Source: Escherichia coli (GTDB lineage: Bacteria > Pseudomonadota > Gammaproteobacteria > Enterobacterales > Enterobacteriaceae). Taken from it: DNA of 4,312 nt. The position numbers and the translations under genes were made by a program. A model generated the notes under the pieces. It saw only the letters and a list, made by a program, of their open reading frames with translations. It did not search any database and had not been told where the DNA came from. How positions within the stretch are numbered: position 1 is the first letter of the stretch; each line of letters starts with the position of its first letter. Positions 2,205 to 2,232 of the stretch are shown piece after piece. The stretch lies in NCBI RefSeq assembly GCF_003334315.1, contig NZ_QOWR01000101.1; one strand, 5' to 3'.

Positions 2205-2207
2205 GAA

Positions 2208-2227
2208 AGGGGAGCATTAGCTCCCCT
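2208..2227. terminator. Hairpin between convergent genes (AGGGGAGC-ATTA-GCTCCCCT, 8-bp perfect stem), likely a bidirectional rho-independent terminator for birA (+) and coaA (-).
   Basis: Perfect inverted repeat in the 28-bp gap between the birA stop (2204) and coaA stop (2233); on the - strand the stem is followed by TTCTTATTTTTC, on the + strand by the less T-rich GCAAATTATTTG. Confidence 0.7.
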
Positions 2228-2232
2228 GCAAA

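Follow-up and report, generated by a model that had tools for sequence, protein, structure and literature searches.

The birA/coaA hairpin of Escherichia coli: a probable bidirectional terminator with one decayed arm

The hairpin located between the convergent genes birA and coaA of E. coli is probably an ordinary bidirectional terminator with one decayed arm, and both of its 3' ends are already present in published tables. The new part is only the comparative result, namely, that in Escherichia the U-tract is gone from the birA arm and the hairpin has stayed. Taken as a whole, the data are probably best explained by a shared asymmetric terminator that leaks on the birA side and is backed up by Rho.

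Results

Gene content of the analyzed DNA

The window, i.e., the whole stretch of 4312 bases that was analyzed, is an E. coli chromosome segment located 3' of the rrnB operon. Its + strand carries murB (214-1242; MurB family match of 540 bits in NCBIfam, with which the RefSeq annotation agrees) and birA (1239..2204, with the stop codon TAA at 2202-2204; 321 aa; BirA equivalog of NCBIfam, 654 bits). On the - strand, coaA was found (2233..3183, with the stop codon at 2233-2235; 316 aa; type I pantothenate kinase, 480 bits). The RefSeq annotation concurs with the NCBIfam matches on the identities of birA and coaA. The tRNA genes thrU-tyrU-glyT-thrT (3545-3986) come next, and the start of tufB closes the window. 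In MG1655, the counterpart of murB, birA and coaA lies at 4172057-4175026; across birA and coaA, there are no length differences, and the window coordinate equals the MG1655 coordinate minus 4171843. The segment around the birA/coaA hairpin was found in 5,420 of 5,426 complete E. coli genomes.

Several further features of the window were recorded. The murB stop codon and the birA start codon overlap in ATGA (1239-1242), an arrangement typical of translationally coupled genes, here those of the murB-birA operon. The mechanically defined coaA ORF runs to a TTG at 3339 (368 aa); the annotated protein has 316 aa and begins at the ATG at 3183. The upstream extension occupies 3184-3339 of the - strand, and the family model aligned from residue 9 only, the position of a second Met. 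The window begins within the tail of the rrnB operon (1-122), where two perfect hairpins were found, one at 46-66 and one at 94-117. The second of these is the rrnB T2-type terminator (AAGGCCATCC TGAC GGATGGCCTT, then TTTGCG); it was overlooked by the simple terminator scan, and a TRS sheet gives a + strand 3' end at 4171965, i.e., at window position 122. A terminator-like match at 3773-3785 (- strand) is located between tyrU and glyT, antisense to the tRNA operon, and is probably due to chance. Many of the orthologous loci (L002-L081) are entire contigs of 4.1-5.9 kb. Because rrn and tufA/tufB repeats flank the segment, short-read assemblies break on both sides of it, and the window is probably such a repeat-bounded contig.

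A single hairpin in the birA/coaA gap

The stop codons of birA and coaA are separated by 28 bp (2205-2232). This gap contains a hairpin (2208..2227, both strands), the arms of which, AGGGGAGC (2208-2215) and GCTCCCCT (2220-2227), enclose the loop ATTA (2216-2219). According to the inverted-repeat search, the stem consists of 8 bp, is 100% complementary and includes six G-C pairs, and the loop has 4 nt. The preliminary description of this DNA, which had been made from the sequence, had also placed one perfect 8-bp hairpin (2208..2227) in a 28-bp gap, and this was confirmed by the sequence, the ORFs and the repeat search. Around the hairpin, an outer imperfect palindrome is formed by AAATAA (2199-2204) and TTATTT (2233-2238), where the Lys-stop codon pairs of birA and coaA stand face-to-face.

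The folding energy of the gap was -16.4 kcal/mol for the + RNA (z = -4.1) and -16.5 kcal/mol for the - RNA (z = -5.0), and none of 200 shuffles matched its fold stability. Within the 4312 nt, perfect hairpins of at least 8 bp with a loop of 3-8 nt are confined to the rrnB terminator region and the gap, and the number of GC-rich perfect hairpins expected by chance is 0.03 per dinucleotide-shuffled window. The 34-mer that extends from stop to stop has one match per genome. A scan of the window against Rfam returned the four tRNAs only and no family at the hairpin.

Tails on the two sides of the stem

The minimum-free-energy stem absorbed pairs between the A-tract and the T-tract and so masked the tails; the core closed by G/C pairs was used instead. 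On the - strand, this core is followed by TTTCTTAT, which has 6/8 T, a tail score of 4.04 and d = +30. On the + strand, it is followed by TGCAAATT, which has 3/8 T, a tail score of 1.10 and d = -23, where d is the d'Aubenton-Carafa discriminant calculated with modern energies and is of comparative value only. The consensus terminator scan of the gap called the - strand only. These counts and the scan uphold the earlier statement that coaA has a good tail and birA a weak one.

The U-rich tail of the coaA terminator (TTCTTATTTTTCTGC; 2193..2207, - strand) overlaps the birA stop codon and the last two birA codons. The end of birA, GAA AAA TAA, is, on the opposite strand, the source of this U-tract. 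In the weak tail on the birA side (GCAAATTATTTGCGT; 2228..2242, + strand), GCAAA pushes the U residues 5 nt off the stem. The sole U-rich stretch 3' of the hairpin for birA RNA is TTATTT, which consists of the last codons of coaA and its stop codon. The features of an intrinsic terminator on the coaA (-) side are a GC-rich stem-loop within the usual limits (stem of 5 bp or more, loop of 3-8 nt), an adjacent U-tract and an in vivo 3' end within this U-tract, whereas the birA (+) side has the GC-rich stem-loop and lacks the adjacent U-rich tract. By its stem, its tail and the K-12 3' ends described below, the hairpin on the coaA (-) strand has the makeup of a canonical intrinsic (Rho-independent) terminator. 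Judged by the sequence definition of such terminators, the coaA arm alone qualifies, and the birA arm does not.

3' ends and Rho-dependent signals in K-12

All of the experimental 3'-end and Rho data used here originate from K-12, which has an allele different from that of the window; we infer that they carry over to the latter. In the Term-seq data of Adams et al. 2021, the coaA 3' end at 4174046(-), which is window position 2203, was detected in two growth conditions and classified as 'primary coaA, antisense birA'. A coaA RNA that ends at this position reads ...CCCCUUUCUU and terminates 5 nt past the stem, within the birA stop codon. In the TRS data of Bar et al. 2023, the coaA terminus is at 4174044/45(-), and the K-12 coaA ends overall correspond to window positions 2201-2203. 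The same TRS data include a 'Primary' significant terminus of birA at 4174075(+), i.e., at window position 2232. The birA RNA that ends there reads ...CCCCUGCAAA and also terminates 5 nt past the stem. This is a steady-state end, compatible with either release or trimming. Adams et al. 2021 reported no + strand Term-seq end from murB to thrU in three conditions, and Bar et al. 2023 reported no transcription start site within 150 nt upstream of the birA or coaA terminus. In K-12, the mature birA and coaA transcripts overlap by approximately 30 nt, from window position 2203 (Term-seq, - strand) to 2232 (TRS, + strand). A single hairpin between convergent stop codons, flanked by K-12 3' ends on both strands, is what is expected of a bidirectional terminator, and the earlier claim that one hairpin is common to both genes is substantiated by these ends on either side of the stem.

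Signals beyond the hairpin were found on both strands. Adams et al. 2021 reported a bicyclomycin-sensitive Rho region at 4174249(+), i.e., window position 2406, labeled 'antisense coaA', with a Rho score of 3.58 (p 1.3e-7); the upstream/downstream reads were 75/36 in untreated cells and 82/141 with bicyclomycin. Another Rho region, at 4173792(-), i.e., window position 1949, labeled 'antisense birA', had a score of 4.11, with 115/19 reads in untreated cells and 203/138 with bicyclomycin. Both Rho scores were recomputed from the read counts and reproduced. These regions derive from 800-nt windows, which makes the positions approximate, and the counts are low (tens of reads). The downstream/upstream ratio in untreated cells was approximately 0.48 on the + strand versus 0.17 on the - strand, with the same low counts and 800-nt windows; the higher + strand ratio is in line with the tail asymmetry. 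The TRS sheet additionally lists secondary ends at 4174294(+), i.e., window position 2451, and at 4173960(-), i.e., window position 2117. No RNA structure beyond that of shuffles preceded these two ends (z = -0.27 for 2451 on the + strand and -1.13 for 2117 on the - strand). When the K-12 coordinates are transferred to the window, the read-through RNA would end approximately within 2400..2455 on the + strand (antisense coaA; Rho at about 2406, 3' end at 2451) and approximately within 1949..2117 on the - strand (antisense birA; 3' end at 2117, Rho at about 1949).

It had been proposed in the preliminary description that birA transcripts may read into coaA as antisense RNA. The presence of such RNA is supported by the + strand Rho region at 2406 and the end at 2451; its origin from murB-birA is the part that we infer. 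The leak had been presented as a trait of the birA side, and in this respect the proposal has to be amended since the coaA side leaks slightly too (Rho region at 1949, secondary end at 2117). Of the two observations that had been named as arguing against read-through, + strand ends at 2228..2235 and a lack of antisense coverage over coaA, the former was found (end at 2232), but antisense coaA signal is present.

The C/G ratio of the + RNA located 3' of the hairpin is 1.0-1.3 over the first 200 nt and reaches 1.8 at +341..418, against a background with a median of 1.0 and a 90th percentile of 1.62. Just past the hairpin, the + RNA is neither notably rich in C nor notably poor in G, so that a Rho loading site is not predicted there from sequence alone. 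The - RNA just past the hairpin has a C/G ratio of 1.9, which is suggestive of a Rho loading site on the - strand only. In the coding regions, birA had 0.19-0.20 TRS read starts per position, coaA 0.36-0.54 and tufB about 20. By this measure, coaA RNA is two- to three-fold more abundant than birA RNA, and the transcription of both genes is weak, about 50-100 times below that of tufB.

Alleles of the hairpin in E. coli

The alleles were told apart by their stop-to-stop 34-mers, five of which cover 5,357 of the 5,421 E. coli genomes with the locus. The birA-side tail is TGCAAA in the K-12 type, which has GAGTATTCGCTC as the top of the stem (2,377 genomes), and in the allele of this window, which includes O157:H7 (606 genomes). 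It is TGAAAA in the type named after this tail (1,248 genomes) and in a form of this type in which GAT precedes the stem (about 746 genomes; two were sampled, and both had GAT). The UTI89/Nissle type (380 genomes) has TTTAAA. According to these counts, about 92% of the complete genomes of E. coli have a U-poor birA side.

The allele of the window differs from that of K-12 at the top stem pair and in the loop only. In the K-12 allele (L001), the top pair (window positions 2215/2220) is U.G on the + RNA but mismatched (C.A) on the - RNA, and the energies of the strands are -11.6 (+) versus -10.1 (-) kcal/mol. In the UTI89 allele (L082), TTT is kept, but a C.A mismatch lies atop the + strand stem, which is the reverse of K-12. 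The GTDB representative of 'E. coli' (L003) has an allele, TAAAAGAGGGG...TTTAAA, that was found in none of the 5,426 complete genomes. In E. coli NRZ14408 (35-45; L087), birA is one codon shorter (…GAA TAA TAA), and the gap is 31 bp. This locus and L088 have GAT in place of GAA just before the stem, and their U-tract on the coaA side is slightly weaker (5/8 T).

Conservation across Enterobacteriaceae

With CoaA as the probe, 80 loci from different Enterobacteriaceae species were collected, and the MG1655 locus was added. birA is convergent on coaA in 68 species (MG1655 included), with a gap of 23-65 bp (median 30). Each of these 68 gaps holds one GC-rich hairpin, the commonest core of which is GGGAGC/GCTCCC. 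The loops are free to vary: 52 distinct sequences were counted among 69 hairpins. In an alignment of 39 sequences, 94.6% of the stem cells formed standard pairs versus 45-70% in slid controls. Three stem pairs have changed on both sides (for example, the second pair from G-C to A-U in 15 sequences), and the covariation score of the stem was reached by none of 500 shuffles. Divergent genera have other stems that are still paired, such as GGGGCC/GGCCCC and GGGGGAT/ATCCCCC. Since the stem remains paired while the loop varies and the changes are two-sided, it may be concluded that the structure is the thing selected.

At the 62 non-Escherichia junctions, the median number of T residues in the 8 nt after the core was 7 for the birA tail and 6 for the coaA tail. 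At least 5/8 T on both sides was found in 54 of these 62 species, a U-rich tract on the birA side in 59, and a positive + strand d-score at 49 junctions; none of the 62 had a + tail score as low as the 1.10 of the window. In the seven Escherichia sequences, the coaA side has 6/8 T throughout, and the birA side has 2-5. On this comparison, the loss of the birA-side tail is a derived state of Escherichia in which the hairpin was retained.

The convergent partner of coaA in 13 species (Enterobacter, Leclercia, Lelliottia, Silvania and relatives) is an ABC-transporter ATPase gene rather than birA. The junction of coaA with this gene contains a different, fully symmetric hairpin, AAAAAAACCGGCG...CGCCGGTTTTTTT, i.e., the same architecture made of other parts (loci L035, L048, L051, L056, L059, L061, L063-L065, L070, L078 and L080). 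At the Tenebrionibacter locus (L042), birA is absent too, yet this hairpin was not found.

Discussion

The hairpin at 2208-2227 would be an overlapping 3'-end element common to the murB-birA and coaA units, the two arms of which are no longer equivalent. On the - strand, RNA polymerase would transcribe the GC-rich stem and then UUUCUUAUUUUU, and most coaA transcripts would stop 5-7 nt past the stem, within the stop codon of birA. The identical stem would be followed by GCAAAUUAUUU on the + strand; because no U-tract adjoins the stem on this strand, the release of RNA polymerase is expected to be inefficient. A fraction of the murB-birA transcripts would go on into coaA and yield untranslated RNA antisense to its 3' part; this read-through RNA would be ended by Rho within roughly 200 to a few hundred nt. 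The C/G ratio of the + RNA past the hairpin is a weak spot of this account. The bicyclomycin-sensitive + RNA would accordingly start in murB-birA and not at an internal antisense promoter. The mature end of birA mRNA at 2232 is still set by the hairpin. It may result from weak intrinsic termination, but for much of the RNA, 3'-to-5' exonuclease trimming of read-through products to the stem is the likelier origin. Dar and Sorek 2018 (PMC6061677) found that Rho-terminated mRNAs are generally trimmed by 3'-to-5' exonucleases back to a stem, and the end at 2232 is presumably made by trimming rather than by direct release, although the TRS end as such would fit direct termination equally well. The + strand promoter-like sites that a scan detected inside coaA (2513-2540 and 2573-2601) could add antisense RNA independently of birA.

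Bidirectional terminators have reportedly been known as a class since the description of the tonB/P14 terminator by Postle and Good in 1985. According to Ju, Li and Liu 2019, such terminators of convergent genes are pervasive in E. coli. As in the bidirectional Rho-independent terminators known from tonB/P14 and from Ju 2019, one palindrome in a very short convergent gap is used on both strands here. Most birA/coaA junctions of Enterobacteriaceae have the textbook form of a bidirectional terminator, i.e., an A-tract, a hairpin and a T-tract. Unlike in this form, the T-tract on the birA side is replaced by TGCAAA in the window and by TGCAAA or TGAAAA in the large share of E. coli genomes given above. 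In this respect, the birA side resembles the ends studied by Dar and Sorek 2018 (PMC6061677), in which the steady-state 3' end carries a stable stem-loop that lacks a U-tract and transcription farther downstream is sensitive to bicyclomycin; unlike at those ends, the + RNA downstream of birA is not clearly C-rich or G-poor. The same authors predicted that termination may switch between the intrinsic and Rho-dependent modes through changes in U content, and the comparison of the birA/coaA junction between species shows the predicted switch. A resemblance also exists to the pervasive antisense transcription suppressed by Rho and NusG (Peters et al. 2012): untranslated read-through RNA that is antisense to a neighbor is terminated by Rho, here on both strands. 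A difference from Peters et al. 2012 is that the antisense RNA would most simply be ascribed to a leaking terminator of the convergent neighbor and not to a spurious antisense promoter.

It might be supposed instead that the terminator is efficient in both directions, because of hairpin pausing combined with collisions of convergent polymerases or because of non-canonical intrinsic termination, and that the Rho-sensitive RNA comes from antisense promoters inside coaA. The + strand 3' end lies exactly 5 nt past the stem and mirrors the coaA end at the same distance, promoter-like sites are present on the + strand of coaA, and hundreds of terminators that are neither intrinsic-like nor Rho-dependent were reported by Ju et al. 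2019. However, the collision model (Ju 2019 and Wang 2022) suits highly expressed genes best, and since birA and coaA are weakly transcribed, collisions are expected to be rare. Moreover, the Term-seq data of Adams et al. lack a + strand peak in three conditions, and the best position of the Rho score (2406) and the secondary end (2451) are upstream of the promoter-like sites, which start at 2513. This explanation, the main rival, is considered rather unlikely. A lack of any specific role, with the hairpin being a chance palindrome or a REP-like repeated element, might be suggested by its shortness (20 nt) and has a probability close to nil. Both readings were rejected: 0.03 such hairpins are expected per window, the structure is conserved between genera although its loops vary and its stem shows compensatory changes, the 34-mer occurs once per genome, Rfam gave no match, and 3' ends lie beside the hairpin on both strands.

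A shared terminator that leaks toward coaA raises the question of whether the antisense RNA measurably reduces coaA expression and so links biotin and CoA by regulation. Read-through into antisense coaA is supported, and the weak + tail must be tolerated or favored, as about 92% of the complete genomes of E. coli have it fixed. On the other hand, birA RNA is the rarer of the two and only part of it reads through, Rho shortens the antisense RNA to within a few hundred nt, and the loss of the U-tract is equally well explained by drift with Rho as a backup. No report of a regulatory effect of birA read-through on coaA was found in the searched literature. Such regulation thus seems very improbable, and the interference with coaA that had been suggested in the preliminary description is unsupported, given the shortening by Rho and the scarcity of birA RNA relative to coaA RNA. 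It is also very doubtful that the loss of the birA-side U-tract in Escherichia was adaptive rather than due to drift, in the sense of a Rho-gated leak that ties CoaA output to Rho/NusG or to murB-birA transcription; we would give this very little credence.

For biology at large, the shared asymmetric terminator described here carries little weight since shared hairpin terminators of convergent genes are textbook knowledge and documented genome-wide in E. coli. It may be of use in teaching and in the calibration of terminator predictors, for which hairpins in such gaps need to be scored separately for each strand. Within the family, the birA/coaA junction provides a natural example of a bidirectional terminator in which one arm has decayed within a single genus to a U-less, Rho-backed end while the hairpin is still selected.
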